64,000 nt of DNA from a virus. Made by a program: the position numbers and the translations under genes. Positions within the stretch are counted from its first letter, which is position 1; each line of letters begins with the position of its first letter. This document shows, piece after piece, positions 1,405 through 38,015 of the stretch. Where the stretch lies: positions 37,812 through 101,811 of the IMG/VR virus record IMGVR_UViG_3300032401_001693. One strand, 5' to 3'. Under the pieces are notes generated by a model. It did not search any database. It was not told the origin of the DNA and was given only the letters and a program-made list of their open reading frames with translations.

Positions 1405-1967
1405 ACTACGTAATTCTAAAAAAGTCTGTGGAAGGAAAGGTAATAGAGTTTCTTGCTGACAATCCAAATCCACCTGATAAGAAGATTCATGACTTGTCGG
1501 ATAGGCTGAAGATTAAAACAGACAAGTTTGAGGCGAAGATCTATGGGGTGCTTAGTGATGTTATTGAGCATGGAAATGGAGTAAAAGCTGACCCAAAAGA
1601 GTTAGCTATGGGTATCAAAATAGAAATGGAGCATACTAAGTATCCAGAACTTGCTAAATACATTTCTTTGGCCCATTTGAAAGAGATACCGGACTACTAT
1701 ACACGCCTTAAGAAGATGGAAGAGGAAGCAAAAAGTATTAATAAAGCAGTAAAAGATTCTAAAACTATTACGATAAAGTGTTCTAAGCAAGCTTCGGAAG
1801 ATCTTATTAGATTATTAGAACATTTGAAAGTATGGGGAAATATAGGACATTCTGGTAGTATACTGGCTGATCCGCCCTATGGTATTAAGGTTCCTAAAGA
1901 TGGTAAAATGTTTGGTTTCGATGGTGACGGTTCGTCAAAGATTTGGAGTATAAAAGAATCCGAATGA
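1401..1967 (+). CDS. leader-tagged (MNYVILKK^S) protein with a DUF5661-like domain; candidate internal head protein
   Basis: Shared leader; ELAMGIKIEMEHT...AHLKEIPDYYTRLKKME resembles DUF5661 (from memory); internal INK^A separates a second small domain. Confidence 0.6.
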   Translation: MNYVILKKSVEGKVIEFLADNPNPPDKKIHDLSDRLKIKTDKFEAKIYGVLSDVIEHGNGVKADPKELAMGIKIEMEHTKYPELAKYISLAHLKEIPDYYTRLKKMEEEAKSINKAVKDSKTITIKCSKQASEDLIRLLEHLKVWGNIGHSGSILADPPYGIKVPKDGKMFGFDGDGSSKIWSIKESE

Positions 1968-3991
1968 ACTACGTAGTCTTAGAAAAAGCTAAACCATATT
2001 TTAGAACTCGTAAGGGAAAGAGGGAGTTTGTGAGAGGTTATGTTTCACGAGTTGCTGTTCTGCCAACTCCAGAGCAACAGGAGCAGGGCAAGACGGGGCT
2101 AATGGAGTATTTAGAAGCTGTAACTAAGATGTTTCCTAAAGAAGCTAAACGGGAAGGCCGTGAGTACTCCAGTGTTGAGGAGTTTGTTCTTAAGCATGGT
2201 AAGTTTTATACACCTAAGGAGCTTCCCAAAAATGTTCTAGAGGGTAAGGTAAAAGACTGTTATATGAATGCTTGGCATTTGGCTACGGAAAGAAAAGATC
2301 TGACCTATGTGGAGGGGTATGCAGCCAGTGTGATACCTGTTATGCACGCTTGGTGTGTAGACAAGCAGGGGAATGTTATTGATCCAACATGGGGAACTGG
2401 TAAAGCATACTACGGTGTTCCTTTTACGACTGACTATATTATGAAGACTGCTATGAGAAGGAAGTATTTTGGGATTTTAGACAACTATCAGGAGGGCTAT
2501 CCTCTTTTAAAGGAGAGACCAAAAGAGGGTGTGATAGAAAAGTCCTACCATGTTGTTATGGAAAAGGCTACTCAAACTGGGCATAAAGCCTATGCTAGGA
2601 GTGTTAAGGGTAAGCTTCAACAGATTAAGCCAAAGGGATTTGTAAGGAAGCCTATTCCTAAGCGTAGGGAGAATGTTGTAGAGACTGTGGTTAGAAGTCA
2701 AGCTAGGAGAAAGGCTGTTCAGAGAGAAGAACCTATGCCAGAGTTTGATCAAACTACTGATATGCTTTCTGAGGCAACCGAAAAGTTGAAAGAGCAGTTT
2801 GATATAGATAAAAAACATTTTGAAGGGACTATTTCTTATCAAGAGATTAAATCTCAGATGGATAAGAATCTGAAAGAGATAAGGACTGAGAATTCTAAAA
2901 TTAGAGAAGTTTCTGGTTTTATGGATACCGATAATGCTAGGTCAATAGCTGCTAATATGAGAAATGAGTTAACAGTATATACTAAGTATCTAGCAGGTGA
3001 TTCTGTTGATCTTATGCATAAGTTTGTTAGTCTAACTGAGACTACTATTGAGAACGAGGATCTTAAAGGGATTGATGCTAAATATCTGAGCGACATGTGT
3101 GTAGATAGTATAAAGAAGCTGGTACACCAGGAGATAGAATCTAATAGGCAACAGTTTACTGACCACGGTGTTAGACATATAGTTAAGAATATACTTAACC
3201 AGAAAGATATGTTAGATTTACTTCAATCTTCTGGAATAACTGTTTCTCCTAAAGATAGGCTTTTGGCTATTTTTGTTATGATAAATCATGATGTTGGTTA
3301 TACAACTCCAGTGATTAGAGGTGGTGGCATAGAAGGAATAAAGGCTACTAAGCAGCATGGTGTCTATGGTAAGAAAATAGCAGAAGAGCAAAAGGATTTA
3401 TGGAATGTTGATAAGATATTTAGTGAGGAAGAGTATAATAGGGGGTTGGATATAATCGAAACCCATGATTCTGTGGATATGGATACTAAAGATCCTGTGG
3501 CTTTGACTACTAGGATTGCTGATAACTTGTCTCTATTCCAAAAAGAGAAACTTCCCTCAATGTTTGAGTATGTAGAAGGAGCAGAAAGGCTTCTAGTAGC
3601 GATGGGAGTGGCCGCTAAAAAAGACGAGAAAGAGGGATTTGAGAAATACAGAGATCAGTTGTACAAAAAAATAGATAAGGCTAAGTTCAGTCCAGCTTTA
3701 AAACGGGATTTAAAAGCTGGGTGTAAAGAAATTAGTTTCCTTACTCCTAAGTTTACGGTAGGTGTTTTAGCAGGTGAGATAAGTAAGATAGGTAAGTCTG
3801 ATAAGAGTCTTATCCAAGTGACTATAAAGCATAATAAGTTTGATGAAACATTACAGAAGCTCTTTGATGTGGGACAGCAGCAGGTAACGAAGCTACTAAA
3901 AGATTATGGTGAAACTGATTTCTCAAAGACTGAGTACCATTTAGGGAAGTATGGAGATAAGTCAATTTTGGAGTTAAAGGTAGAGAAATGA
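1964..3991 (+). CDS. tagged two-domain cargo protein: papain/transglutaminase-like (Cys-His-Asp) domain plus HD phosphohydrolase domain
   Basis: Start reassigned to ATG 1964 (ATGA overlap), MNYVVLEK^AKPYFRTRKGKREFVRGY. Domain 1: DCYMNA...YVEGYA...HAWCVD...IDPTW. Second tag VMEK^A...KAYARSVKGK. Domain 2: TDHGVRH...NHDVGY...HG...ETHDS...RIADNL. Confidence 0.7.
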   Translation: MNYVVLEKAKPYFRTRKGKREFVRGYVSRVAVLPTPEQQEQGKTGLMEYLEAVTKMFPKEAKREGREYSSVEEFVLKHGKFYTPKELPKNVLEGKVKDCYMNAWHLATERKDLTYVEGYAASVIPVMHAWCVDKQGNVIDPTWGTGKAYYGVPFTTDYIMKTAMRRKYFGILDNYQEGYPLLKERPKEGVIEKSYHVVMEKATQTGHKAYARSVKGKLQQIKPKGFVRKPIPKRRENVVETVVRSQARRKAVQREEPMPEFDQTTDMLSEATEKLKEQFDIDKKHFEGTISYQEIKSQMDKNLKEIRTENSKIREVSGFMDTDNARSIAANMRNELTVYTKYLAGDSVDLMHKFVSLTETTIENEDLKGIDAKYLSDMCVDSIKKLVHQEIESNRQQFTDHGVRHIVKNILNQKDMLDLLQSSGITVSPKDRLLAIFVMINHDVGYTTPVIRGGGIEGIKATKQHGVYGKKIAEEQKDLWNVDKIFSEEEYNRGLDIIETHDSVDMDTKDPVALTTRIADNLSLFQKEKLPSMFEYVEGAERLLVAMGVAAKKDEKEGFEKYRDQLYKKIDKAKFSPALKRDLKAGCKEISFLTPKFTVGVLAGEISKIGKSDKSLIQVTIKHNKFDETLQKLFDVGQQQVTKLLKDYGETDFSKTEYHLGKYGDKSILELKVEK

Positions 3992-4170
3992 GTAGTGAGA
4001 TTCTAAATTTTCTTATATTAGTAGTGAGTGTGCTTTTGAATGTAATTCTTATTGCTCTAACTATTCTAGCATTTCAGGCTTGGGAACATACTTTACTAGG
4101 TTTTGTATTTTTGACTGCGGTTTTTATGGTAACTTTTGGGATTTATAAGATGCTGGAAAGAGCTGGATGA
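3988..4170 (+). CDS. small membrane protein (two hydrophobic segments)
   Basis: 60 aa, two long hydrophobic stretches, ATGA-coupled at both ends. Confidence 0.6.
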   Translation: MSSEILNFLILVVSVLLNVILIALTILAFQAWEHTLLGFVFLTAVFMVTFGIYKMLERAG

Positions 4171-4700
4171 ACTACGTAATATTAGAAAAATCTCAGGTTA
4201 AAGGATTTACTAGGACTAGAAAAGGTAAGATGGAGAGAGTAAATCCTTTTTCAAGGAAGGGTGAGAAAAAAGTTAAATCTGTAGTTTTTCTTCATGGCAC
4301 GACTACTGCTGTTTTGGAAAGTATACTGAAACATGGGTTAACAGCAAAGGCAGCAAGAATGTCTGTATTTATAGATACGAAACAGGGATTTAAGAGAGGG
4401 GTATTTCTTACGTCCGATAGAAAAACTGCTGAGGCGTTTGCTTCTACGGCTTGGAGAGAGAAAGGAACCACATCGGTAGTTTTAGAGATTAAGATTCCAG
4501 ACGGCGAGAAATTGTATGGTGATCCTCCTCATAGTTCTAGGTTTCATGTAGGGAATATTCCGGCCTCTTGGATAAAAGCCTATTCTATACAAAGTTCAGG
4601 CAGAAAATGGTCACGCACTCTTGTTAAGTCAAAACAGGAGCAAATTTTCTTTGTTCCTGTAGTTATTGTTAATACAAAGGAGAAAGAAAATGATAAGTGA
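4167..4700 (+). CDS. tagged ADP-ribosyltransferase-fold protein (Tpt1/KptA- or PARP-like NAD-binding core)
   Basis: MNYVILEK^SQVKGFTRTRKGKMERVNPF tag, then FLHGTT..LESILKHGL...GVFLTSD...AEAFA...VVLEI...IPASWI. Confidence 0.65.
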   Translation: MNYVILEKSQVKGFTRTRKGKMERVNPFSRKGEKKVKSVVFLHGTTTAVLESILKHGLTAKAARMSVFIDTKQGFKRGVFLTSDRKTAEAFASTAWREKGTTSVVLEIKIPDGEKLYGDPPHSSRFHVGNIPASWIKAYSIQSSGRKWSRTLVKSKQEQIFFVPVVIVNTKEKENDK

Positions 4701-6249: not shown

Positions 6250-6414
6250 ATGGAAGAAAAATGCGCAGTATCTAATAAATGTACTCCACTTTGTTCTGGA
6301 TATAAAGAACGAGGGCAGTGTCCTGCTTGGTATCAGGCGGAGAAAAAGAAGAAGTGGGATAGGAAGAGGAAGGATGAATTTCGTTATACTAGAAAAAGCT
6401 CAAGTTCGAGTTAA
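6250..6414 (+). CDS. small 4-Cys hypothetical protein (54 aa, not in ORF track)
   Basis: MEEKCAVSNKCTPLCSGYKERGQCPAWY... fills the gap between genes; GAGGG upstream. Confidence 0.4.
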   Translation: MEEKCAVSNKCTPLCSGYKERGQCPAWYQAEKKKKWDRKRKDEFRYTRKSSSSS

Positions 6415-6556
6415 ACCCCATACTGCAACTATTAGGGGTAAAATAGTTCAAGTGAGGCAGTATACTAGGACTGATTCTAGGGAGAGGTCTTTGGATGAGA
6501 GGACTACTGGATTACTGGAGGTTGGGGCCTATCCAAAGCTGCCGGAAGAAAGGTAA
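6374..6556 (+). CDS. tag-bearing N-terminal segment, probably the 5' part of the GNAT gene (frame break near 6545)
   Basis: MNFVILEK^AQVRVKPHTATIRGKIVQVRQYTR; stops at AGG TAA while the +1 frame continues into the GNAT. Confidence 0.55.
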   Translation: MNFVILEKAQVRVKPHTATIRGKIVQVRQYTRTDSRERSLDERTTGLLEVGAYPKLPEER

Positions 6557-7250
6557 ACTGGATGATATTGAAAAGTTTAATGTTAAGGTTGCAAATGAAA
6601 AAATGACTAAAGAGAAAATACTTAATGCTTTTGTTTTAGATATACCTGATGCAGATAATGATGTGGGTATTAAAGCGGCATTTTGGGACGAAAACGATCT
6701 AGATGTTCAGGTTCAGTATCGTGTTAATAGAAAACATGCAGGAAGGAGCCATCTATACATCTACTATGATCCAAAAATAGATGGGTATGTCTGTTCTTTC
6801 TCTCTTATGGAGCTGGAGGCAGGATTTCAATCTCAGGGTTATGGACACAAGTTTTTTAAGAGATTGGAAACTAATTTGAAATCTTGGGGTGTTAAAGAGA
6901 TAAGGCTTTTTGCCGATCTGGATGTTGGTGGATATGCCTGGGCTAGGTTTGGGTTTGACTTTTTGAACGCTCAAGCAAGAAAGATGACAGTTAATGGGTT
7001 TATTAGAGTTCTAAATCTTGAGTATAACATTCAGGAGGATGCTGACAAGTTTAACCATCCTTGGGAAGTTGCAGTCTACAAAGGTCCCAATGGAGAGCCG
7101 ATAGGAAAGAAGTTTCTTTTGGGACAAACAAGGTTTATGACGGGCCATGATTGGTTGGCTAGTAAGACTTTAGATGAAAATAGTCTTGGTTGGAAAGTAG
7201 GAGAGGACTATGAAAGATCAAAAGCCAAAGTTGGGACCGCTACAGCATAA
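6495..7250 (+). CDS. GNAT-family acetyltransferase
   Basis: Acetyl-CoA motif LEAGFQSQGYGHKFF, then GVKEIRLFADLDVGGYAWARFGF. Confidence 0.7.
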   Translation: MRGLLDYWRLGPIQSCRKKGKLDDIEKFNVKVANEKMTKEKILNAFVLDIPDADNDVGIKAAFWDENDLDVQVQYRVNRKHAGRSHLYIYYDPKIDGYVCSFSLMELEAGFQSQGYGHKFFKRLETNLKSWGVKEIRLFADLDVGGYAWARFGFDFLNAQARKMTVNGFIRVLNLEYNIQEDADKFNHPWEVAVYKGPNGEPIGKKFLLGQTRFMTGHDWLASKTLDENSLGWKVGEDYERSKAKVGTATA

Positions 7251-7574: not shown

Positions 7575-7913
7575 ATGTGGATCAAGATAAGAAAACTAAA
7601 TAAAGCTATTTATCCTGGAAATTTAGGTTTGGTAGAAATGCATCAGTTTGTCAAGGAAGCTCCTGTGGGTCAGGCTGAGAAGTTTGTTCAACTACTGAAA
7701 CAGGATAAAACTAGAGAAGCTGTAAAAATGTTGGAAGAGTTCACAAAAAAGAAGTTCCATCCGTCTATTCATGGCCTAAATCTTTTGCCTTCTCATAAGG
7801 ATCCCAAAAAGAAGAGATGGCAGCATGTACTTTTACAAAAAGCTAAACCATATACTAGAACTCGTAAAGGCAAGTTTGAGAGAGTAAAGGGCTATAACAA
7901 AGGCTTGGAATAA
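7575..7913 (+). CDS. small tagged protein (LNK^A near N-terminus; full tag at C-terminus)
   Basis: KLNK^AIYPGNLGLVEM...HVLLQK^AKPYTRTRKGKFERVKGY. Confidence 0.6.
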   Translation: MWIKIRKLNKAIYPGNLGLVEMHQFVKEAPVGQAEKFVQLLKQDKTREAVKMLEEFTKKKFHPSIHGLNLLPSHKDPKKKRWQHVLLQKAKPYTRTRKGKFERVKGYNKGLE

Positions 7914-7960: not shown

Positions 7961-10900
7961 ATGCCTAGAATAAGAATTCCTAAAACAGCTATAACTGAAC
8001 CTATAACCACAATTTATGCTGATCAAGTCACTCAAGCCGTCAGACAAAGACAGATGAGTAAGATCGATAGGGAATCTCTGCGCTTGATCACGCGTATCGA
8101 CGATGACATGAGAGATAGGTTAGGAGCTTTACTTCGGGAAGGTGTAGAGCAAGGTAGATCAGTTTCAGCCACTGCAAGTACCCTCTTGAAAACAGGTCTG
8201 GACAAAGGCACGTTTAGATCAGCCAGGCGCAGAGCTTGGATGATAGCAAAGACTGAGCTACACCGCGCACGAATGCTTGCTGCCCGAGATGTTTATGAAG
8301 CTAATGGTATTGATTTAGTTAAATGGATTGGAATAGGAGATGAGCGTATCTGTCCGGTGTGCGGTAGGATGCATAATAGAGTTTTTCGTTTAAGAGATAT
8401 AAGAGATGAGCATCTACCACCAGTTCACCCTAGGTGTAGATGCAGGGTCGTCCCAAGTGACATGCAAATGGATATAACAGTAAGACATGATAGAGAGGGA
8501 AAAGTGGTAGAGTCGAAAGTGGCACCAAACCCGCATGATTATCTTTATGTAGTGAAGCTTAAGAAGGCTTTAGAAGACCTAATGAAAGCAGTTCAAGTTC
8601 GTGGGGAAGATTTAGTACAAGGAACTCCCTTATTCAAAGCTGATGATAATGAAATAGATTTAGAGAAGAGCGAATTTTCATCTACTCAGGTTAATCTACC
8701 TAAGGTGTTAGCTTCTAAGGTTTTGAATACTGTTAAACTTATAGATCCAGATGACCTACATCCTACAGAGAAACAAGATGACGCTCCACATATTACTGTT
8801 AGATATGGCATACTTCCAGAGGTTCCACCTAAGCATGTAAAAGAAATACTTGATCATCCAGGAAAGGTAAAAGCCAGTATTACTGGTGTAGATGTTTTCC
8901 AACCCGAAGACAAAGACTATGATGTTTTGGTTTTTAGGATTGATAGTCCAGATCTTAATTTGCTTAATGAAAAGCTAAAGCAACTGCCACATGAAGATAC
9001 TTATCCATTTTATCAACCTCATTCTACTATTGCTTATCTGAAGAGAGGACTTGGAAAAAAATATGTAAACTTAGTAACTGGTCTTGAGGGGGAAGAAATT
9101 GAGTTTGACACAATCAAGTTTTCTGATAAGGATTATAAAAAGGTTAGTATTGACTTAGAAAAGGCTTTTGGAGGGCTAGAGACGGAATTAGAAAAAGCCA
9201 GGCCCTACATCCGAACTAAAAAGGGAAAGTTAGAGCATGTAAAGGGCTATCCACATAGGCCACGACTATTTGATGTAAGTCCTGAGAAGAGAATAGAAAG
9301 GGCTTTGGAGCCTACCCGAGAAGATGTAAAAATGGTTAATAGGATCTCACATGAGATACACGCAATAGGTGGTAGAGCTCTAATAGTGGGTGGGTTTGTT
9401 AGGGATGCTTTACTAGGCAGACCAAGTAAAGATATAGATGTTGAGGTCTATGGTGTTAAACCAACCGAACTTAGGAGTGTTTTAGATAGGATAGGTAAGG
9501 TAGATGCAGTAGGTGCTTCGTTTGGCGTTCTAAAAGTATCTGCTCCAGAGATGGATGAGCCACTGGATGTTTCTATTCCTAGAAGAGATTCTAAAGTGGG
9601 TACTGGCCACAAGGGTTTTATTGTGGAAGCAGATCCTGGAATGACTCCTAAAGAAGCTGCCCTTAGAAGGGACCTTACTATTAACTCCCTTGCCTATGAT
9701 CCTATTACTAAAGAAATAATAGATGAGTATGGTGGACTTCAGGACATAAAAGATCGCAAATTAAGTGCTACCGATGATACTACTTTTGTGGAAGACCCAC
9801 TTAGAGTACTTAGAGTGATGAGATTCTCTGCCCAGTTAGGGTTTAGTCCTACGGTAAAGTTGGCTTGGCTTTGTAGGAGTGTGGATTTGACTAGCTTGCC
9901 TAAAGAGAGAATCTATGGAGAACTAGAAAAGACTCTAATGTCTAAGAATCCTAGTATTGGGTTAATGCTTACCAAGATATTAGGTATAAATAAGATATTG
10001 CCAGAATTAGAGGATCTTAGAACCACAGAACAAAGTCAAGAATTTCATCCGGAAGGGGATGCGTTTCAGCATACTCTACAAGTGATCGACTCTGCATCCA
10101 AACTAAAAAAGGGTTTCTCAGATAGATCAGATCGTATTGTCTTAATGTTTAGCGCACTTTGTCACGATATGGGTAAACCTCAGACCACAGAGACTACTGC
10201 TGAGGGTAAGATTATTAGTCATGGGCATGATGCTGTAGGGGCTGAGGTAGCTAGAAAGTTTATGGAAAGGTTGACTAATGAGAATGATTTGATTGATCGA
10301 GTAGAGATTCTAGTGCGTTCACATATGGCGCCTACCAATCTATACCAAGCTAAAGCAGGAGATTCAGCTATTCGTAGATTGGCTAAAAAAGTTGATATAC
10401 CTATGCTTGTCGCACTATCAGCTGCAGATAAGAGGGGACGTGATATAAAGGTTGATCTAAAGGCTGAGAGTTGGTTAATGAAGAAATATAGGACCCTACT
10501 GTTAAATAGACCTGAGACTTTAGAGGCAAAAGTAAGGGGTAGGGATTTGATACCTTTAGGAATCCAACCAGGTCCTGATATGGGCAGATTACTGAATAAG
10601 ATTTATTCAGCTCAGTTGGATGGTAAGTTTGAAACTATGGAACAGGGATTGGACTATGCTCGTCAACAGGGATGGCTGGTGAAGGGGTTATTTGGATATG
10701 ACATAAATAAAGCAGTTCCGGTGAAAGGGTTTACCAGAACTAGAAAAGGTAAGAGGGAGATGGTTAAACCACATACTAGGACTGCTAAACAAAAGATGAC
10801 TGCTCTTGAGGCTTTTGTAGGTGGGGCAGTTCCAAAGAAGGGTTGGCAGAAAGAGGAGGCTGATAAATTCCTAGAAGAAGTTAATCCTATTTTTAAGAAA

Positions 10901-12685
10901 CATCATTTTAAAGTAGAGATGATAGGTTCAGTGGCAAGAGGTAAAGTTTACGAAAAGGGGCACTATGATCTAGATTTGAGGATTACTCATACTAGAGGAG
11001 ATGAGACTGCCGAAAGAGAGGATTTAGATTATGAGTACACTGATCCTAAACAGCAGGGGGATCTAGGAAGGTTGTTGTTGAACTTGCAGAAGAAGGGGTT
11101 ACATTTTGAAATAAATGAACCGTCTGGAGAGGAGAAAGATCCTACAGCTACTCTTAGTCTAAAAGATGGTAGGGTGGTGGATCTGTATTATGAGGAACAC
11201 GAGGGAAAGGAAGGAATGGAGGAAAAGACTCCTCTCTTGCATCTAACCTATGATAAGTTGGCAGCAGGTGGTAGGGTTAAGCATGTTCCTAAACCAGATC
11301 CAGAGCAGGAAGAGGCTATTAGGAGATGGTTGTCTAAGTCATTACTAGAATATATTGGTAAGCCAAATACTGAGGAAACACGGAAAGAGATCCAGGATCT
11401 GGTTTTAAAAGCCATCCAAGTTAAGGGTCATCTTAGAACCAGACGTGGGAAGCAAGGATGGGTTAAACCACACCATAGGCAGGCAGGAGAAATAAGCCGA
11501 AAGATTCCAGAAGTTAGTGTGTCAGGTTTTGATGATAGTGATGTTGTACCAGAAATACCCGGTTTTGACGAAGGATCATTTGAGCCTAGATTGAACTGGT
11601 TTGCAGAGAAAAATTATCTTGGATGGAAAAAATTTAAAGTAGATGAAGCTATAAGGGGGGATTTTCCTGAGAAGTACCGAAATGAGAAGTTTGTATACCT
11701 TTTGAAAGATCTTAGAACTGGTGAGGATTTTACGGGTGGAACTCAGGCAGAATTGGAAACTTTCCTAGACGAACTTGAGAAGGCTGATAAGAAATCAAAA
11801 GAATATGTTTCTAAATGGGACTTAAAGTCTATAAATATTTTGCCTAGAAATGAGGATGCTGAAGTTTTATCTAAAAGGGTTTCTTGGGATTTTGAAAATG
11901 CTATATACGCCCTTATGGAAATTGATAGAAAAATAGGTATAGCAGGTCGTGGTATATTAAATATTAGGTTTGGTAAGACGGACGATGGTGATGAATCCAG
12001 AGGCATATACGTAGTAAAAGAAAAATTAATAGAAATAGATGATAGATATCCAAGGACAGTACCTCATGAGTTTGGACATTTTTTATTTGATATGAATATT
12101 GGTATAGAGGAAAACAGGTCCTATTTTAAAGAGTTAAGTGATGCCTTAGGAGATTATTATCTTAGTAACAAAAAGGAAGTTGCCACATGGATTATAGAAC
12201 ATCCATACGATGGTTTAGATTACTTTTTAATGCCTACTGAACAGTTTGCTCGTGTGGTTGATACGTATGTGAGGGGTGAAGTTGATGAAGTTTTCTATCC
12301 TGATAATCATCCCGAATATTTTAAGATAGTTAATGATTGGGGTGATAAATATCTAAAGACTGGAGTTATAAAAAGTAAATCTATTTTTCTGTTAGACCTT
12401 AAAAAATCCAGGAAAGAGTTAGTAAATTTAAGAAAATCTAGAGTCGAGGGTAAGAAAATTCCATATAGGAACGATAATGGAAAAGTTGTCTGGGCTAAAG
12501 TAATGGATGGTGGGGTGGTAATAAAAGGAACGAGGGATAAAGTATTTCTCGGAACTAAAATATTGATAAAATCAGATATTGCCAACGTGACGGGGGTAGG
12601 ACGAGATGGTGTGATTGCTAGAACTGACAATGGCAAGAAATACCAGGTTCTACACAAAGATTTGAATTTTTGGGTTAGGAGGTGA
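7961..12685 (+). CDS. MuF (minor head protein) polyprotein: MuF + 2H phosphoesterase (Acb1/gp57B-like) + class II CCA-adding enzyme with HD domain + nucleotidyltransferase + HExxH metallopeptidase-like domain
   Basis: MuF: IAKTELHRA...W...DERICPVC...PPVHPRCRC. 2H: PHITVRYG / YQPHSTIAY. CCA: VGGFVRD..DIDVEV, RRDLTINSL, EDPLRVLR, HPEGD..HT, CHDMGK. NTase: IGSVARG..YDLDL. Zincin: VPHEFGHFL. Confidence 0.85.
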   Translation: MPRIRIPKTAITEPITTIYADQVTQAVRQRQMSKIDRESLRLITRIDDDMRDRLGALLREGVEQGRSVSATASTLLKTGLDKGTFRSARRRAWMIAKTELHRARMLAARDVYEANGIDLVKWIGIGDERICPVCGRMHNRVFRLRDIRDEHLPPVHPRCRCRVVPSDMQMDITVRHDREGKVVESKVAPNPHDYLYVVKLKKALEDLMKAVQVRGEDLVQGTPLFKADDNEIDLEKSEFSSTQVNLPKVLASKVLNTVKLIDPDDLHPTEKQDDAPHITVRYGILPEVPPKHVKEILDHPGKVKASITGVDVFQPEDKDYDVLVFRIDSPDLNLLNEKLKQLPHEDTYPFYQPHSTIAYLKRGLGKKYVNLVTGLEGEEIEFDTIKFSDKDYKKVSIDLEKAFGGLETELEKARPYIRTKKGKLEHVKGYPHRPRLFDVSPEKRIERALEPTREDVKMVNRISHEIHAIGGRALIVGGFVRDALLGRPSKDIDVEVYGVKPTELRSVLDRIGKVDAVGASFGVLKVSAPEMDEPLDVSIPRRDSKVGTGHKGFIVEADPGMTPKEAALRRDLTINSLAYDPITKEIIDEYGGLQDIKDRKLSATDDTTFVEDPLRVLRVMRFSAQLGFSPTVKLAWLCRSVDLTSLPKERIYGELEKTLMSKNPSIGLMLTKILGINKILPELEDLRTTEQSQEFHPEGDAFQHTLQVIDSASKLKKGFSDRSDRIVLMFSALCHDMGKPQTTETTAEGKIISHGHDAVGAEVARKFMERLTNENDLIDRVEILVRSHMAPTNLYQAKAGDSAIRRLAKKVDIPMLVALSAADKRGRDIKVDLKAESWLMKKYRTLLLNRPETLEAKVRGRDLIPLGIQPGPDMGRLLNKIYSAQLDGKFETMEQGLDYARQQGWLVKGLFGYDINKAVPVKGFTRTRKGKREMVKPHTRTAKQKMTALEAFVGGAVPKKGWQKEEADKFLEEVNPIFKKHHFKVEMIGSVARGKVYEKGHYDLDLRITHTRGDETAEREDLDYEYTDPKQQGDLGRLLLNLQKKGLHFEINEPSGEEKDPTATLSLKDGRVVDLYYEEHEGKEGMEEKTPLLHLTYDKLAAGGRVKHVPKPDPEQEEAIRRWLSKSLLEYIGKPNTEETRKEIQDLVLKAIQVKGHLRTRRGKQGWVKPHHRQAGEISRKIPEVSVSGFDDSDVVPEIPGFDEGSFEPRLNWFAEKNYLGWKKFKVDEAIRGDFPEKYRNEKFVYLLKDLRTGEDFTGGTQAELETFLDELEKADKKSKEYVSKWDLKSINILPRNEDAEVLSKRVSWDFENAIYALMEIDRKIGIAGRGILNIRFGKTDDGDESRGIYVVKEKLIEIDDRYPRTVPHEFGHFLFDMNIGIEENRSYFKELSDALGDYYLSNKKEVATWIIEHPYDGLDYFLMPTEQFARVVDTYVRGEVDEVFYPDNHPEYFKIVNDWGDKYLKTGVIKSKSIFLLDLKKSRKELVNLRKSRVEGKKIPYRNDNGKVVWAKVMDGGVVIKGTRDKVFLGTKILIKSDIANVTGVGRDGVIARTDNGKKYQVLHKDLNFWVRR

Positions 12686-12690
12686 GATAG

Positions 12691-12936
12691 ATTTTCTATT
12701 GTAACTCCTGCGGAAATGAAGTAATTAAATCGTATCCAAGTGGTTCTGTCAAGTTAAGGACCAACATTGTTATCTTCGAAAATGGACGAGCTTTTTGTAA
12801 ATGTCCCGAATGCCATTCTGAAGTTAATCTGCCACTAGTATTGGAACTTCCTACTGGTAAAACTTTACCACTGGGCAAGAAATTGCAATATTTTATTTTG
12901 GAAAAAAGTGAGAAGGGGGTGAAAGGTGAAAAATGA
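12691..12936 (+). CDS. Zn-ribbon protein with ATT start codon (81 aa, not in ORF track)
   Basis: AGGAGGTG (12677-12684) lies 6 nt before ATT, which directly follows an in-frame TAG. The protein reads IFYCNSCG...KLRTNIVIF...CKCPEC...YFILEK^S and fills the 240-nt gap exactly. Confidence 0.65.
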   Translation: MFYCNSCGNEVIKSYPSGSVKLRTNIVIFENGRAFCKCPECHSEVNLPLVLELPTGKTLPLGKKLQYFILEKSEKGVKGEK

Positions 12937-13360: not shown

Positions 13361-13378
13361 TTGAAAAAAGGAGGCTAT

Positions 13379-14224
13379 ATGAGGTTAAAATTGAAAGAGT
13401 TAAGAAAGTTTTTTGTACGAAGGATTGCAGCTATATCTGATTTGCACCTAATGTCTAGATCTTCACTTTTTCCGCCTATTTTTAAAACCACAGAAGGTAA
13501 CGAGTTTCGTGGAAATACTGGTCAGAGTCAGATATGGAGTTACTGGAAGCAGTTTTGTCATATATGCGATGAATGGGAGGTAGATACTGTGTTTTTAGCA
13601 TCAGATCTACTACATGGGCAGAATCCAATAGAAAGGGGTACGGGTTTAATAAGTACCAACCTAAATGAACAGATACAGTTAGGAGAGGACACTTTGACTC
13701 TTTTACTAAAAGGAAGGGAGAGTCATTGGGTAGGAGGTTCCAGATATCATGACAGTACTAAAGGGATGTACGTTGAACACGAGCTTTGTAACCGTATGAC
13801 AGAAGCTGGTATAACTAAAGGCACCTGGCATGGACCAATAGCCAATATGAGAGTGAAGCCTTTTGATAAGATAGTAAATATGACGCATGGTGGTGGTAGG
13901 GCGGCATATTACAGAGAAACTATAGCTGCTAGGGAGATGGTTTATGGAAAGGCAGCAGAGGTTGATGGTAAGTTGCCTAGGATCGACTGCTATATTCATG
14001 GCCATTTTCACTGGTATAACCACATTCATCAGGGTCGGGTTCATCATATTCAGCTACCTGGTTGGACGGCTTATGAACCTGTTCCCATTTTTACTCCTAA
14101 CTATACTAGGATGCAACCAGATATAGGTGGAGTTCTTATACTTTTCGACGCAGAAGGTAGGATCACTGTTTGGCATTTTCTTTACCCGCTTCCTCATATT
14201 TCTGATATAGTAGTAGAAGTTTAG
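13379..14224 (+). CDS. calcineurin-like metallophosphoesterase
   Basis: ISDLH, SDLLHG, GSRYHD, THG, HGHFH; ATG 13379 follows AGGAGG. Confidence 0.75.
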   Translation: MRLKLKELRKFFVRRIAAISDLHLMSRSSLFPPIFKTTEGNEFRGNTGQSQIWSYWKQFCHICDEWEVDTVFLASDLLHGQNPIERGTGLISTNLNEQIQLGEDTLTLLLKGRESHWVGGSRYHDSTKGMYVEHELCNRMTEAGITKGTWHGPIANMRVKPFDKIVNMTHGGGRAAYYRETIAAREMVYGKAAEVDGKLPRIDCYIHGHFHWYNHIHQGRVHHIQLPGWTAYEPVPIFTPNYTRMQPDIGGVLILFDAEGRITVWHFLYPLPHISDIVVEV

Positions 14225-14568: not shown

Positions 14569-15831
14569 ATGGGATGCAATTCGGTTGAAAAAGATTTTCA
14601 GTTTTGGATGCCGTTGGAGATCGAAAAGGCCAAAAAAGAGGGAGAGTGGCGAGTTGCTGGAATAGCTTCCGATGAAAATGCCCAGGATATCCAGGGAGAA
14701 ACAGTGTTTGTTAAGGGTCTGGATGTATCCTACTTAATGGAAAGAGGCGCGCTAAACTGGGATCATGGGAAGGATCCTGGAGATATTCTGGGTGAGATTG
14801 AGTTAGCTTCTAAGATAGATGGTGAGAAAAAGCTATATGTGGAGGGGGTTCTTTATCCGCATATCAAAAAAGCTCAGGATGTTTGGAATCTGATGCAATC
14901 TCTAAAGGATACAGAAAGCAAAAGAAAGTTAGGTTTGTCTTTAGAGGGCAAAATTAAGGAAAGAGACTCAGAAACAGGAAAACAGATACGCAAGGCCTGG
15001 ATAAAGAATGTTGCAATCACATACAATCCTATCAATAAAGGTACATATTTGGATATGGTTAAATCATTGGGGAAGTTTAGTTTTGATCTTTGTGATAAGA
15101 AGTGCGAAGGATGTACACTATGCGAAGAGGTGGAAAAGGCTTCTGAGGGAAGTGTGACTATAGATCCAGTCGTAGACCACAAAGAAACAGAAGTGAAGAA
15201 GGCAGAGGTTAAGGTAGCTGAGGAAACTAAACCCATAGAAGTGCCACTTCCCTCAGAGTCAGTTCAGAAAACACTAGAAGCAGGGCAGGATATTCCAGCT
15301 ACTACTGGTGGAGTAAGTGGTTCCGCACTAAGGGCAGAGTCTTTAGAACAGGAGACTAAGGTGACTACATATCAAAAGAAAAAGAAGAAACAGAAGACGG
15401 ATGGAGAATTTACAAAATCTGAACTGGCTGAGTGGTTACAGGAGGAAAGAAACTACTCACCTAAAACTGCTAATTTGATGGCCAATCTCTTGTTTCTAGT
15501 TAAAGCTATTAATATAGCTGGATACATTAGAACTAGGAAGGGGAAGTTAGAAAGAGTTAAGCCCTTTACTAGGGAACTTACACATGAAATATACCGCATT
15601 AAAACAATGTCGGATAGCAATCTTATGACAAGGGCGCGGAAAATAAAACATGCCGACAAAATGCTTCACTTCTATCACGCGGCAGTTGCTGCTGGTAAGC
15701 CTGAGTTGGTTGGTTATATTAGATCTCAGGGCCATAGATTAGGATTAACAAATAGCGATTTTACTGGTGCAGCCGAACCTGTAGGGGCAGGGCTGAAAGA
15801 GGCATCTAGGGCCTTCCGAGCAGCGGCATAG
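14569..15831 (+). CDS. prohead (capsid maturation) protease with C-terminal extensions
   Basis: VAGIAS..DIQGE...GALNWDH...LYVEGVL...RKLGLSLEG...VAITYNPIN resembles Herelleviridae prohead proteases; lies upstream of scaffold and capsid genes. Confidence 0.85.
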   Translation: MGCNSVEKDFQFWMPLEIEKAKKEGEWRVAGIASDENAQDIQGETVFVKGLDVSYLMERGALNWDHGKDPGDILGEIELASKIDGEKKLYVEGVLYPHIKKAQDVWNLMQSLKDTESKRKLGLSLEGKIKERDSETGKQIRKAWIKNVAITYNPINKGTYLDMVKSLGKFSFDLCDKKCEGCTLCEEVEKASEGSVTIDPVVDHKETEVKKAEVKVAEETKPIEVPLPSESVQKTLEAGQDIPATTGGVSGSALRAESLEQETKVTTYQKKKKKQKTDGEFTKSELAEWLQEERNYSPKTANLMANLLFLVKAINIAGYIRTRKGKLERVKPFTRELTHEIYRIKTMSDSNLMTRARKIKHADKMLHFYHAAVAAGKPELVGYIRSQGHRLGLTNSDFTGAAEPVGAGLKEASRAFRAAA

Positions 15832-16067: not shown

Positions 16068-16152
16068 AAGTTACCATAAAGTTAGTAATGGTAAAAGGAT
16101 TAAAGTTAACTCGTTTATTAGAAACGAAGTTGAAAAAGAATATGCTAAGTAA
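16036..16152 (+). CDS. 38-aa basic peptide consisting mainly of a variant of the cargo tag
   Basis: MDLRKERKIIRSYHKVSNGKRIKVNSFIRNEVEKEYAK. Confidence 0.45.
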   Translation: MDLRKERKIIRSYHKVSNGKRIKVNSFIRNEVEKEYAK

Positions 16153-16576
16153 CGTCACAACTTTAGATGAAGAGTTTGAGAAGGCTAAGAAATCAAAAGG
16201 ACAGGATAAAGTCCATACTGTTATGAGTGAGTTCAAACATGGTCATCTCCACTCTGGGAGAGGTAAGAAAGGTAAAAAAGGTAAAATAGTAACTGATAGA
16301 CAGCAAGCAATAGCTATTGCTCTTTCGGAAGCAGGACTTTCTAAAGGAGATAAAATGAGAACTTTTACTAAATCACAGGTAGTAGAATTTCTAAGGAATG
16401 AATGTGGATACGGTCAAGAATCTTCTGAAAAGATGGCTGATCTGGTGTTCAAAGCTAGGATTAAGGGAGCTAAAGATAAGAATAAACGTAAGAAAAAACT
16501 ATTTAAGATTGGTAAAACAGATGGGCAAACTAGATATGGTCCTGCTCCTGTAAAAAAGTGGTTTGGTCAGAAATAA
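16142..16576 (+). CDS. basic protein with DUF6496-like segment and GAKDKxKRKK motif; candidate internal head protein
   Basis: KVHTVMSEFKHGHLHSG...IVTDRQQAIAIALSEAG; several K^[A/S] sites; start reassigned to ATG 16142. Confidence 0.6.
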   Translation: MLSNVTTLDEEFEKAKKSKGQDKVHTVMSEFKHGHLHSGRGKKGKKGKIVTDRQQAIAIALSEAGLSKGDKMRTFTKSQVVEFLRNECGYGQESSEKMADLVFKARIKGAKDKNKRKKKLFKIGKTDGQTRYGPAPVKKWFGQK

Positions 16577-16639: not shown

Positions 16640-17344
16640 GTGACAGAAGAGCTGAGGAAAGAAGAGGGGAAGGAGAAGGAAGAGAAGGTCGAAAAAGCCG
16701 AATCTACCATTACCGAAGACGAATTAATCAAGACTATTAAAGATCTTGAGGATATCGTCAAGGCGCGTAAGAAAATGGAAGAGGAAGAAGAGGAAGAAGA
16801 GGAAGAAGAGGAAGACGAAGAAGAGGAGAAATCCTTTACTGGCAACTTCGAAGATAATGAAACCTTCGCTAAAGCTATTGAAGTTTCCGACTTCTTAAAA
16901 GCCCTTGTTGAAGAGACTGAGAACACTCTGGATGCAATTGGTGACTATGTGATGAAATTGGAGAAATCAACTTCCAAATTTGACACAAAGTATGTTGAGT
17001 CTCTGGGAGAAGTTGGTAAGATTATCAAAGGTCTTGAAGGTTCCATTAAGGAGCAGTTTGGCAAGATTGATGAAAGACTTACCAAAATTGAACAGACACC
17101 AGCAGGGTCTCCAAGATCTGTAGTTAAGAGTGGGACGGTCTTAGAAAAATCGTTTGGTACCGGTGATGGTAGTACAGTGCCGGAAGGTATTGATGCATTG
17201 CCGAAGAGAAAGGTAGTGGAGCTTCTGGAGAAAGCAGTTTCTGACGGAAAGATCAAAGACAGCGTGCTTTTTACCTATGAAGGTTCTCCAAAACCCGAGC
17301 TTACAGATGATCAGAAAGACATTTTGAAGGCCTATATCAAATAG
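16640..17344 (+). CDS. capsid scaffolding protein
   Basis: Between protease and capsid genes; acidic and coiled-coil-like with a poly-Glu tract; 10 K^[A/S] sites in 234 aa; AGGAGGTG RBS. Confidence 0.75.
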   Translation: MTEELRKEEGKEKEEKVEKAESTITEDELIKTIKDLEDIVKARKKMEEEEEEEEEEEEDEEEEKSFTGNFEDNETFAKAIEVSDFLKALVEETENTLDAIGDYVMKLEKSTSKFDTKYVESLGEVGKIIKGLEGSIKEQFGKIDERLTKIEQTPAGSPRSVVKSGTVLEKSFGTGDGSTVPEGIDALPKRKVVELLEKAVSDGKIKDSVLFTYEGSPKPELTDDQKDILKAYIK

Positions 17345-17400
17345 GTTTAGATGAAAGTTTTTTAACTTGATAGAAGAAAAGAAAGGAGGTGAAAACAATA

Positions 17401-18819
17401 ATGATAGGGATAAAGGACTATGAGCACATGGACGGATTTGGGATGTCCACTTGGGAAGAAGTTGCTCAGTTGAACAAAGCCTTAGCGGCAGGCTATGATA
17501 TTCCTGCAACATCAGGGGGTGTTAGTGGATCTGCTATTAGGGTTGAGTCTCTGGAAGCTTCTCTTAAAGTGATCACTTTCCAGATGCAACACGTTAGGTT
17601 TTGGCAGAAGATCCCCAAACTTCCTGCTTTTAGTACTGTTGAAGAATACAACCAGTTGACTTCCTATGGTTCAGACGCTGGTGCATTTACCCCTGAGGGC
17701 GAGCTTGGTGAATACGATGACGCTGTGTACGCCAGAAGGGTTTCATTAGTTAAGTACCTGCAGACCGTTCGGAAAGTTACCCATCCATTAACACTGGTTA
17801 GGGCAGCTCACGGCGATGTGGTAGGGAATGAAATCCGAAATGGAATTATGTGGCTGATTGGTAAAATCGAGAACTCAATGTTCTGGGGTAATAGCAAACT
17901 TCGTCCGTTAGCAGCTGAGGGTTATGAGTGGGACGGCCTCAATCAGTTGATTGATGCCTCGATGGTTGTTGACTGTAAGGGAGATCCTCTTACAGAGGAC
18001 ATTATCGAAACTGCTTCTAACACTATAGTTGAGAACTACGGATTTCCAACTGATATCTTCATCGGCACAAAGCCGTTGTCGGATCTAGCCAAAGTTATGT
18101 TTCCTAAAGAGAGGATTGTTGTTCCTATGACAGCAGGCCAGGTTGGAGTGCCTCTTAATACCTTCGCATCTCAGGCTGGTATTTTAGCATTTAATCCTGA
18201 TGTCTTTTTGAAGAAAAAGACTCCTCTTACCGTAGCTTCGTCAGCCAAGGCTCCTACAGCACCTGCTAGTTTAACAGCGGTTAAATCTAGTACTGGTACT
18301 TATACAGGGGACTGGACAAAGACTGGTAATGGTTGGGGAACGTATTACTATGGTGCGTCGTATGGTAACAGGTACGGCGAATCTGCTGTTTGTGTTAGTG
18401 GGTCTAACATCTATGATACTATCGTAGCTGATACGGATTATATGACCATTACAGTGGTCAACGCTTCCTATACTATAGCTCCAGAGTATTGCAACATATA
18501 CAGGACTGTAGCAGGAGGTGGATCAACTGGTACCAAGTATCTTATTTCATCTACGGCAGTGGATAGCACTACCTCTGGTGGTGGCGGTACTACGACCCGT
18601 ATTGACAAGAATGAGATTTGTGCAAATGTCCATTCAGTATTCATTGGTGAGTTGACTCCTCAGGTTATATGTTTCAAGCAGCTCGCTCCAATGATGAAAA
18701 TGGATTTAGCAGTGATTGAACCTAGCGTGAGATGGTTGCAACTTTTGTATGGTACGATGCAACTTTTTGCTCCGAAAAAGTGGATAAAAATTTCTAATAT
18801 CGGGGAAGCAACCGTATAA
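17401..18819 (+). CDS. major capsid protein precursor (SPO1/A511/Twort-like)
   Basis: LNK^ALAAGY...GSAIRVESLE..LKVITF...FWQKIPK.PA.STVEEY...IENSMFWG...EWDGL...YGFPTD matches the A511/K capsid pattern (from memory). ATG 17401 follows AGGAGGTG. Confidence 0.88.
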   Translation: MIGIKDYEHMDGFGMSTWEEVAQLNKALAAGYDIPATSGGVSGSAIRVESLEASLKVITFQMQHVRFWQKIPKLPAFSTVEEYNQLTSYGSDAGAFTPEGELGEYDDAVYARRVSLVKYLQTVRKVTHPLTLVRAAHGDVVGNEIRNGIMWLIGKIENSMFWGNSKLRPLAAEGYEWDGLNQLIDASMVVDCKGDPLTEDIIETASNTIVENYGFPTDIFIGTKPLSDLAKVMFPKERIVVPMTAGQVGVPLNTFASQAGILAFNPDVFLKKKTPLTVASSAKAPTAPASLTAVKSSTGTYTGDWTKTGNGWGTYYYGASYGNRYGESAVCVSGSNIYDTIVADTDYMTITVVNASYTIAPEYCNIYRTVAGGGSTGTKYLISSTAVDSTTSGGGGTTTRIDKNEICANVHSVFIGELTPQVICFKQLAPMMKMDLAVIEPSVRWLQLLYGTMQLFAPKKWIKISNIGEATV

Positions 18820-37787: not shown

Positions 37788-38015
37788 ATGGATATGAAGG
37801 ATAAATTTTTGTGGAATGCAACTAAGTATGGCAGTGTCAGGGCTAGTAGTATTAGAAACTTTACTGTAGAAGAGGATCAAGGTCTATACATAGTATTGGC
37901 ATGGATGAGTGATGAGGAGAGTATAAAGATGGGAGGATTTGATACTCTAGATGAGGCTAGGAGATTTCTGGTAGATCTTCACAAGCAGATTGAGGAACCA
38001 GTGTATGAAGAGTAG
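37788..38015 (+). CDS. hypothetical protein
   Basis: GGAGG upstream of MDMKD; overlaps the next gene. Confidence 0.55.
   Translation: MDMKDKFLWNATKYGSVRASSIRNFTVEEDQGLYIVLAWMSDEESIKMGGFDTLDEARRFLVDLHKQIEEPVYEE

Follow-up and report, generated by a model that had tools for sequence, protein, structure and literature searches.

The 64,000-nucleotide window analysed here (positions 37,812 to 101,811 of IMG/VR virus record IMGVR_UViG_3300032401_001693) comes from an uncultured tailed phage of 102 kb with a head module similar to the one found in Herelleviridae; the genome is a 101.8-kb single contig of ~38–40% G+C with genes almost all on the + strand. At positions 7961–12685 (+) lies a single uninterrupted open reading frame (ORF) for a polyvalent head polyprotein of 1574 aa and 179.5 kDa, with the genes for a protease, a scaffold and a capsid protein 1.9–6 kb downstream. 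The polyprotein begins with a MuF domain, and its enzyme domains are separated by short sites, [LIVMF]-x-K^[A/S] with Lys as P1, three of which are directly followed by a basic tag. A preliminary description of the ORF had proposed this arrangement, and the domain matches, the single frame and the three tags, each behind a site, bear it out. From sequence and structure models we consider it likely that the polyprotein is MuF-anchored cargo that would be cut in the head by the prohead protease into separate injected effectors.

The modules of the polyprotein, all on the + strand, can be delimited as follows. Module 1, MuF (aa 1–202; 7961–8566), matched Pfam PF04233 with 49.7 bits (cut-off 29.6) over aa 57–163 as well as several PHROG minor-head and head-morphogenesis families, was modelled by AlphaFold2 (AF2) with a predicted local distance difference test score (pLDDT) of 60–86, and ends in YLYVVKLKK^A, conserved in homologs. 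This LKK^A forms the N-terminal boundary of linker 1 (aa 203–236; 8567–8668) and is the first of its four sites, with LMK^A, LFK^A and LEK^S. Module 2 (aa 237–401; 8669–9163) carries two HxT motifs, in PHITV and PHSTI, and matched PHROG 755 (E=2.8e-11); its Pfam score of 26.2 bits is slightly below the cut-off of 27. With its AF2 model as the query, the best Foldseek match was a phage phosphodiesterase (9q2y, E=1.9e-5), Acb1 was also found (7t27, E=1.3e-3), and further structural matches were to poxvirus cGAMP phosphodiesterase, plant cyclic phosphodiesterase (1jh6 among the matches) and LigT. Sequence and model together point to a 2H phosphoesterase, apparently of the cyclic-nucleotide or RNA-end phosphodiesterase type. 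Linker 2 (aa 402–412; 9164–9196) is flanked by two LEK^A sites (P1 401 and 412) and leads into module 3 (aa 413–917; 9197–10711), which consists of a basic tag (aa 413–436) and a class II CCA-adding enzyme with an HD domain and ends in INK^A. Pfam matches in this module were to the PolyA_pol head (PF01743, 71.6 bits), HD (PF01966, 41.7 bits) and the RNA-binding domain (PF12627, 22.4 bits), aa 474–880 matched PHROG 2244 tRNA nucleotidyltransferase with E=2.4e-73, and the GGFVRD, DIDVE, RRD and HD motifs are readable in the sequence.

Module 4 (aa 918–1126; 10712–11338) starts with a tag (aa 918–942), continues with a probable minimal Pol-beta-type nucleotidyltransferase (NTase) and ends in LSK^S; the NTase-like region (aa ~969–1028) has a GSVARG...DLDL motif and gave weak matches (Pfam NTP_transf_2, E=0.075; Atlas lead, 0.88). 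It is followed by a 24-aa spacer (aa 1127–1150; 11339–11410) that ends in VLK^A and is homologous to the segment preceding the tag of the protease itself, as judged from a BLAST alignment of protease aa 269–336 with aa 1198–1269 of the polyprotein P0017. Module 5 (aa 1151–1274; 11411–11782) contains a tag (aa 1151–1175) and a 100-aa segment for which a family search found no family, and ends in LEK^A. Module 6 (aa 1275–1471; 11783–12373), a putative zincin-like (gluzincin-like) metallopeptidase, has HEFGH at aa 1369 and a downstream distal Glu conserved in seven homologs; its matches were weak (Pfam M78, E=0.19; nearest Atlas clusters 'putative metalloprotease' and LPD1, a language-model lead of 0.94), and it ends at the conserved WGDKYLKTGVIK^S. 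Linker 3 (aa 1472–1492; 12374–12436) is bounded by VIK^S (P1 1471) and holds LKK^S and LRK^S, an arrangement kept in homologs. Module 7, a C-terminal beta domain (aa 1493–1574, the last 82 residues; 12437–12682), is common to nearly all homologs, carries a conserved ..VTA.GKDG.TAR.. motif, and was modelled with pLDDT 83–93 and weak Tudor/KOW/SH3-like matches. It is the only usable part of the AF2 model of aa 918–1574, which was made from a noisy alignment of shuffled homologs and has a mean pLDDT of 47.5. Of the domains listed in the preliminary description, MuF, 2H, CCA/HD and the C-terminal beta domain were confirmed, and the NTase and the HEFGH zincin found weak backing. Copies of the ..GKDG.TAR.. 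motif of the beta domain were also seen in a second protein of this genome (genome 28985–30043, 8.8 kb upstream of the window) and at positions 10001–10126 of L003, a locus in the relative that encodes the homologous polyprotein P0007.

The site motif occurs 14 times in the polyprotein (P1 at 202, 209, 226, 236, 401, 412, 917, 1126, 1150, 1274, 1471, 1482, 1492 and 1537), compared with 4.0 occurrences expected, and this count was reached by none of 300 shuffles. All twelve sites listed earlier are present, and two had been overlooked, at 1274 (LEK^A) and at 1537 (within the beta domain). At several junctions two to four sites stand close together and no tag is present, and there are no hxK[AS] sites within aa 434–916 of the CCA module. 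In the AF2 model of aa 1–480, all six sites of the region fall in two long low-confidence stretches, aa 190–237 and 393–433 (pLDDT below 50), in agreement with the earlier expectation that linkers hold the sites. Site density was compared between linkers and structured parts using a partition blind to the sites, based on pLDDT for aa 1–480, on the PHROG envelope for the CCA enzyme and on pLDDT for the C-terminal domain. Linkers held 6 sites in 118 aa and structured parts 2 in 854 aa (Fisher p=6.5e-5), a ~20-fold higher density in linkers, which was the outcome anticipated for this test when it was set beforehand. One explanation for this result is that the clustering is an artefact of composition, because the linkers are rich in Leu, Glu, Lys and Ala. 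However, when shuffling was confined to each linker, only 0.16 sites were expected in linker 1 and 0.13 in linker 2, compared with the 4 and 2 observed.

The ~20 metagenomic homologs of the polyprotein, all MuF-anchored, provided a second view of the sites. The MuF start is common to all of them and the C-terminal beta domain to most, and the inner modules are shuffled, including ART-PolyVal, RadC, PBECR, InPase, other peptidases, LPD Pfam domains and CCA enzymes with inteins. At every homolog junction the sequence is ..L-E-K^[A/S], in most cases with one of several basic tags behind it, and 51 of the 54 tags in 21 homologs have a site within the preceding 14 aa. In 20 homologs we examined the ends of BLAST alignments that were internal in both partners: 54% of these homology breakpoints lay within 15 aa of a site, compared with 20% at random (0 of 5000 trials), and for six decoy motifs the proportion was 0–16%. 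In these 20 homologs modules are gained or lost at the sites, an outcome that favours the earlier reading. Since decoy motifs do not follow the breakpoints, site positions are conserved across the 20 homologs, and within-linker shuffles do not produce the sites, we rejected the composition artefact and give it virtually no chance of being correct. In two homologs, P0013 and P0014, intein or homing-endonuclease domains (Pfam PF14890 and PF14528) are inserted in the CCA-enzyme module. A megablast search of the region against cultured phages gave no match.

The same motif marks the head-assembly proteins encoded downstream. The prohead (head-maturation) protease (14569–15831, +; 420 aa) was recognised as a putative serine protease of the HK97/S78-like (Herelleviridae-type) kind by PHROG 1028 (E=5e-48) and by a His/Ser pair, H66 and S124, that is invariant across six relatives, an SPO1-like phage included; it has eight sites, compared with 1.7 expected from shuffling, and a site and tag of its own (LVK^A...RTRKGK, aa ~312–336). 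The scaffold-like acidic protein (16640–17344, +; 234 aa) has 9 sites compared with 0.9 expected, a number reached in 0 of 300 shuffles. The major capsid protein (17389–18819, +; 476 aa), which matched Pfam SU10_MCP and shares 42–45% identity with its counterparts in Herelleviridae, contains the motif once, as QLNK^ALAAGYDIP at aa 30; this site is conserved in all relatives and is predicted from the sequence to be the propeptide boundary. In a genome-wide shuffle test of 133 + strand ORFs, the motif was enriched only in the polyprotein, the protease, the scaffold and one 78-aa ORF (genome 30926–31162, outside the window; 3 compared with 0.5). The corresponding counts in the relative that encodes P0007 (L001/L002) were 21 compared with 7.6, 8 compared with 2.5 and 9 compared with 1.4, with ELNK^ALAAG in its capsid protein, and the pattern recurs in high-GC relatives with capsid proteins ~40% identical. 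It also recurs in the cultured SPO1-like Herelleviridae phage OQ921336 (protease, 5 compared with 0.8; scaffold, 11 compared with 1.0; capsid protein, ALNK^ALEAG), and all relatives found carry K^[A/S]. PDB sequence and NCBIfam searches returned no match for the scaffold and the capsid protein, a viral-contig search with the protease as a single-sequence query found no relatives, and a literature search found no N-terminus published for a capsid protein of the Herelleviridae with which K^A could be anchored experimentally.

Two segments of the protease have counterparts elsewhere in the head region. Protease aa 236–270 (15274–15378) are nearly a duplicate of aa 31–65 of the capsid protein (17479–17583), the mature N-arm (..LEAGQDIPATTGGVSGSALRAESLE.. 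and ..LAAGYDIPATSGGVSGSAIRVESLE.., respectively), with VQK^T before the copy, and the protease of the SPO1-like phage ends in K^SLEAGHEIDPSE, similar to the N-arm of its own capsid protein. Judging from this similarity, the N-arm copy may be a route by which the protease docks into the shell. At aa 313–420 (15505–15828), behind LVK^A, the protease has the tag and a conserved ~85-aa module, also present in relative L001; because tag and module continue past its own site, the protease gene itself looks like a small polyprotein with cargo.

The three basic tags of the polyprotein, each starting directly after a site, align with five more copies in the window and one in a relative. Their consensus, x-R-T-R-K-G-K-x-E-x-V-K-x-[YFH]-x-R, is strongly basic, with the P1 Lys and the R, G, K and V invariant; the tag is coupled to the site at a fixed distance of 3–5 residues and is predicted to form a beta-hairpin, with low confidence in both AF2 models. 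The site and tag are not confined to fused modules, as they also head stand-alone genes. Genes 1401, 1964, 4167 and 6374 start with an 8-residue leader, MNYV[IV]L[EK]K^[AS], followed by the tag in three. One of them (4167–4700, +) starts MNYVILEK^S and then the tag (profile match, 64 bits) and encodes a cargo protein resembling ADP-ribosyltransferases (ART), homologous to an internal module of polyprotein P0017 (aa 817–929). Another (1964–3991, +), a 675-aa cargo gene whose start lies inside ORF 1943, opens with MNYVVLEK^A and the tag (profile match, 55 bits). A small gene just upstream of the polyprotein (7575–7913, +), homologous to the module after MuF in polyprotein P0016 (aa 184–280), instead ends in LLQK^A and a tag. 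These two homologies show modules changing place between single genes and the interior of polyproteins. Because the same site-plus-tag cassette heads stand-alone genes behind an 8-residue leader, fused and unfused cargo appear to use one system.

A profile search of the genome found the cassette 10 times, always on the + strand and within an 18-kb head/cargo region. The same profile, run against 1.84 billion representative proteins, detected 228 protein clusters; in 110 of the 145 profile matches examined, the tag lies in the first 30 residues behind a MNYVILEK or ..IDEEFEK leader. The cassette-bearing metagenomic proteins are mostly without a Pfam domain, the exceptions including C39 peptidases, ART-PolyVal, SprT-like, GNAT and Tad6. 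The Tad6 domain (a type I Thoeris inhibitor; E=1.1e-13) was seen in one of the 91 metagenomic proteins of alignment A8, and because that protein carries the leader and tag at its N-terminus, the cassette is tied to anti-defence cargo. A literature search for tag strings such as RTRKGK, HKYIKR and KAWETRR yielded nothing relevant. It is plausible, and we propose it tentatively, that leader or linker, h-x-K^[A/S] and basic hairpin form a portable cassette for encapsidation, release by the prohead protease and delivery with the DNA, which would work N-terminally or between modules. Any role of the tag itself is speculative: it could bind polyanions or DNA, or it could serve as a handle in encapsidation or in docking to the protease, and each of these roles taken singly is rather doubtful.

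Further leaders and tags were noted in and around the window. A 60-aa ORF at 6374–6556 consists of the leader MNFVILEK^A and a tag-like segment alone and overlaps the first part of a GNAT-like ORF (6495–7250) in a different frame; a frameshift, be it real, programmed or an assembly error, may have divided a single cargo gene in two. Several small basic proteins (16088–16576, and at genome 15149, 16020, 17123 and 17992, upstream of the window), among them a DUF6496 protein, are headed by leaders of a second family, ..[ST][LI]DEEFEK^[AS], and in metagenomic proteins the ..DEEFEK leader family precedes the RTRKGK tag. Stand-alone genes of L003 (2578–3126, 6279–8474, 8516–9559 and 16183–17673) have the leaders ..VILEK^S and ..VIDLxK^S followed by a different basic tag, ..AKKAWETRRxGG, and the protease of the relative likewise has a different basic tag (AKKAW..RRKG) at the position of the tag in the protease described here. 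Because the L003 leaders carry this different tag, the tag types appear interchangeable behind the same site.

Which enzyme would cut the polyprotein? Because the motif marks the scaffold, the protease and the capsid propeptide boundary both here and in relatives, and because seven full-length homologs without HExxH keep their sites, the sequences indicate that the cutter is most likely the prohead protease encoded at 14569–15831 and not the embedded zincin. Embedded zincins were favoured as processing enzymes of polyvalent proteins by Iyer et al. 2017 (PMC5512222), who proposed autoprocessing by zincin-like domains, and this polyprotein and several homologs do have an intact HExxH motif and distal conserved Glu. 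Nevertheless, we find it very unlikely that the HEFGH zincin processes its own polyprotein, in the head or after injection. Homologs P0002, P0005, P0009 and P0011–P0014 are without HExxH and yet have 6–17 sites and tags, which rules out the zincin as sole processing enzyme. In addition, the motif marks the scaffold, protease and capsid protein of phages without such a zincin, the SPO1-like phage included, and the leader-bearing stand-alone genes need an enzyme that acts in trans.

The mechanism that we propose would begin with entry into the procapsid. MuF and SPP1 gp7-type proteins are minor head proteins, and on this basis the MuF domain would carry the polyprotein in. The His/Ser prohead protease would then cut after Lys in [L/I/V/M/F]-x-K^[A/S], in the flexible linkers at every module boundary, giving up to seven pieces: MuF (23 kDa), 2H (19), CCA/HD (57), NTase-like (24), module 5 (14), zincin (23) and the beta domain (9). 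Complete cutting would thus release, not the five or six effectors of the preliminary description, but seven modules of 9–57 kDa together with short peptides, and three of the pieces would start with the basic beta-hairpin tag as a new N-terminus. Trapped in the head, the pieces would enter the host with the DNA as ready-made enzymes and would act in tRNA 3′-end repair, degradation of cyclic nucleotides and proteolysis. The data establish what the domains are, how the sites are distributed, and that the cassette is conserved and portable; cleavage is a strong inference and not proof, and its timing and the injection are inferred as well.

We considered the possibility that no cutting takes place, in which case LxK[A/S] and the tag would be structural or adapter linkers (for example, DNA-binding hairpins or beads on a string) and the 180-kDa protein would act fused. 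In its favour, the literature mostly treats polyvalent proteins as fused, there are giant virion proteins that are packaged without processing, N4 vRNAP among them (PMC5512222), and the tags are more strongly conserved than a protease site would require. However, it is the site on its own, lacking any tag, that characterises the scaffold, the protease and the capsid propeptide boundary, both here and in the cultured SPO1-like phage; several junctions have two to four clustered, tagless sites; and a site placed after an 8-residue N-terminal leader makes no sense as a linker. We therefore regard the uncut protein as unlikely. Alternatively, the virion could carry the intact protein and cutting could occur only after injection, by a host or phage cytoplasmic protease; Iyer et al. 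raised activation after injection as a possibility (PMC5512222). The motif, however, is common to head-maturation substrates, including the scaffold and the capsid propeptide, and the protease is co-encoded 1.9 kb downstream, so that we see only a slim chance for this timing and prefer cutting in the head by the prohead protease.

In addition to the precedent of N4 vRNAP, several observations weigh against cutting in the head as we propose it. The site at aa 1537 is inside the confidently folded beta domain, and for that reason it would probably escape cutting. In gene 7575 the tag is C-terminal and no cargo follows it, which misfits a simple role as an N-terminal handle. The module boundaries in aa 918–1490 rest on homology breakpoints, the AF2 model there being poor, and the breakpoint counts are not independent events, as the homologs are mutually related. 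Finally, the protease gave no Pfam, NCBIfam or PDB sequence match, and its identity comes from PHROG 1028 and the conserved His/Ser.

Further reading frames lie between the polyprotein and the protease. Right after the polyprotein stop comes a small zinc-ribbon ORF (12691–12933) that lacks an ATG, GTG or TTG start codon and whose layout has a homologous counterpart in L001 (10296–10508). It finishes with a leader-like sequence (..QYFILEK^SEKGVKGEK), and its stop codon overlaps with the GTG at which the following zinc-ribbon gene (12926) starts. Further downstream, 13361–14224 encodes a conserved 287-aa protein, located between polyprotein and protease both here and in L001, with a weak match to calcineurin-like metallophosphatases (E=0.014).

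Some features of this system are known from other phages. Like the polyvalent MuF proteins described by Iyer, Burroughs, Anand, de Souza and Aravind in 2017 (PMC5512222), the polyprotein joins an N-terminal MuF domain to several unrelated enzyme domains (in those proteins 2H, NTase, ART, RadC and metallopeptidase) and is encoded in the head-morphogenesis region, with injection with the DNA predicted. With its 2H and CCA/HD domains, its zincin motif and a weak NTase, it combines at least two disparate activities, as expected of a polyvalent protein. It departs from the polyvalent scheme of that study in that its junctions carry the motif that the prohead protease is predicted to recognise; a term search of the text of PMC5512222 found no description of conserved junction sites, tags, leaders or a role of the prohead protease, and no occurrence of 'CCA'. 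The MuF polymorphic toxins of temperate phages (Jamet et al. 2017, PMC5576092) similarly fuse a MuF delivery domain to variable C-terminal effectors, but they have one toxin domain and an immunity gene, whereas in the polyprotein six more modules follow MuF, junction sites are present and an immunity gene is not obvious; among the terms searched in the text of PMC5576092, there was no word starting with 'cleav', and neither 'processed' nor 'released'. In the giant phages phiKZ and SPN3US (gp175 and gp245 proteases), head proteins are processed extensively: a single prohead protease recognises a simple consensus and cleaves a large number of head and ejection proteins, some of them more than once (PMC7411985, PMC10052503). 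The phage described here would likewise have one protease for many head substrates with a simple consensus, but the consensus of those phages is S/A/G-x-E, their protease is of a different lineage, and a MuF-anchored polyprotein of several enzymes, with each domain boundary marked by a site, is not among their substrates.

By analogy, the polyprotein also resembles the polyproteins of RNA viruses, in which one ORF holds functional units separated by sites for a virus-encoded protease, although here the virus is a double-stranded DNA phage, the substrate is virion cargo and the protease is a capsid-maturation enzyme from a separate gene. Short portable peptides that bring unrelated proteins into an HK97-fold shell are known as the C-terminal capsid-targeting tail of the HK97 protease and as the cargo-loading peptides of encapsulins. 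Here, protease and cargo have a common tag and the protease also carries the capsid N-arm copy, but the sequences are unrelated to those peptides. In T4, a short leader that ends in the protease consensus, L/I-x-E for gp21, is found on unrelated packaged and injected proteins, including anti-restriction and ADP-ribosylating enzymes. The N-terminal capsid-targeting sequence of the T4 internal proteins (IPI–III and Alt) is removed by the gp21 prohead protease (reviewed in PMC9026906 and PMC9958956). The leaders described here are similarly short, end at a protease consensus and sit on unrelated proteins. In contrast to T4, however, P1 is Lys (h-x-K^A/S) and not Glu, there is no sequence relationship, the cassette also strings cargo internally into a polyprotein, and a conserved basic hairpin tag follows the site. 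Because P1 is Lys and the capsid protein is Herelleviridae-like, we conclude that the cassette system is an analogue of T4 capsid-targeting cargo and not a member of that group. Thus, MuF-anchored polyvalent proteins and the processing of packaged proteins by prohead proteases (T4, phiKZ, SPN3US) are already known. Our literature search found no description of a conserved protease-site junction at every polyvalent module boundary with the specificity of a Herelleviridae-type protease, nor of such junctions coupled to interchangeable basic tags and heading stand-alone cargo genes.

Injected phage proteins and their loading are known for few model phages. If the interpretation given here is correct, the conserved cassette would allow injected effectors to be read from metagenomic phage genomes, with 228 clusters already at hand, most of them without a known domain, and would identify, from sequence alone, the whole injected arsenal of an uncultured phage clade with Herelleviridae-like heads. 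This arsenal would include a pre-packaged kit for tRNA repair and cyclic-nucleotide degradation and, in a relative, a Thoeris inhibitor. Delivery of a ready-made CCA/HD enzyme and 2H phosphodiesterase suggests that tRNA 3′ ends are repaired, and cyclic-nucleotide alarm signals destroyed, at once and ahead of any phage gene expression. The cassette would be a phage counterpart of the encapsulin cargo-loading peptides, and it is an obvious candidate for a handle with which phage heads could be loaded, in laboratory systems, with proteins of choice. Finally, polyvalent proteins could be true polyproteins, resolved by the capsid-maturation protease, which would settle for one clade a point left open by Iyer et al. 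2017, namely who processes polyvalent proteins.

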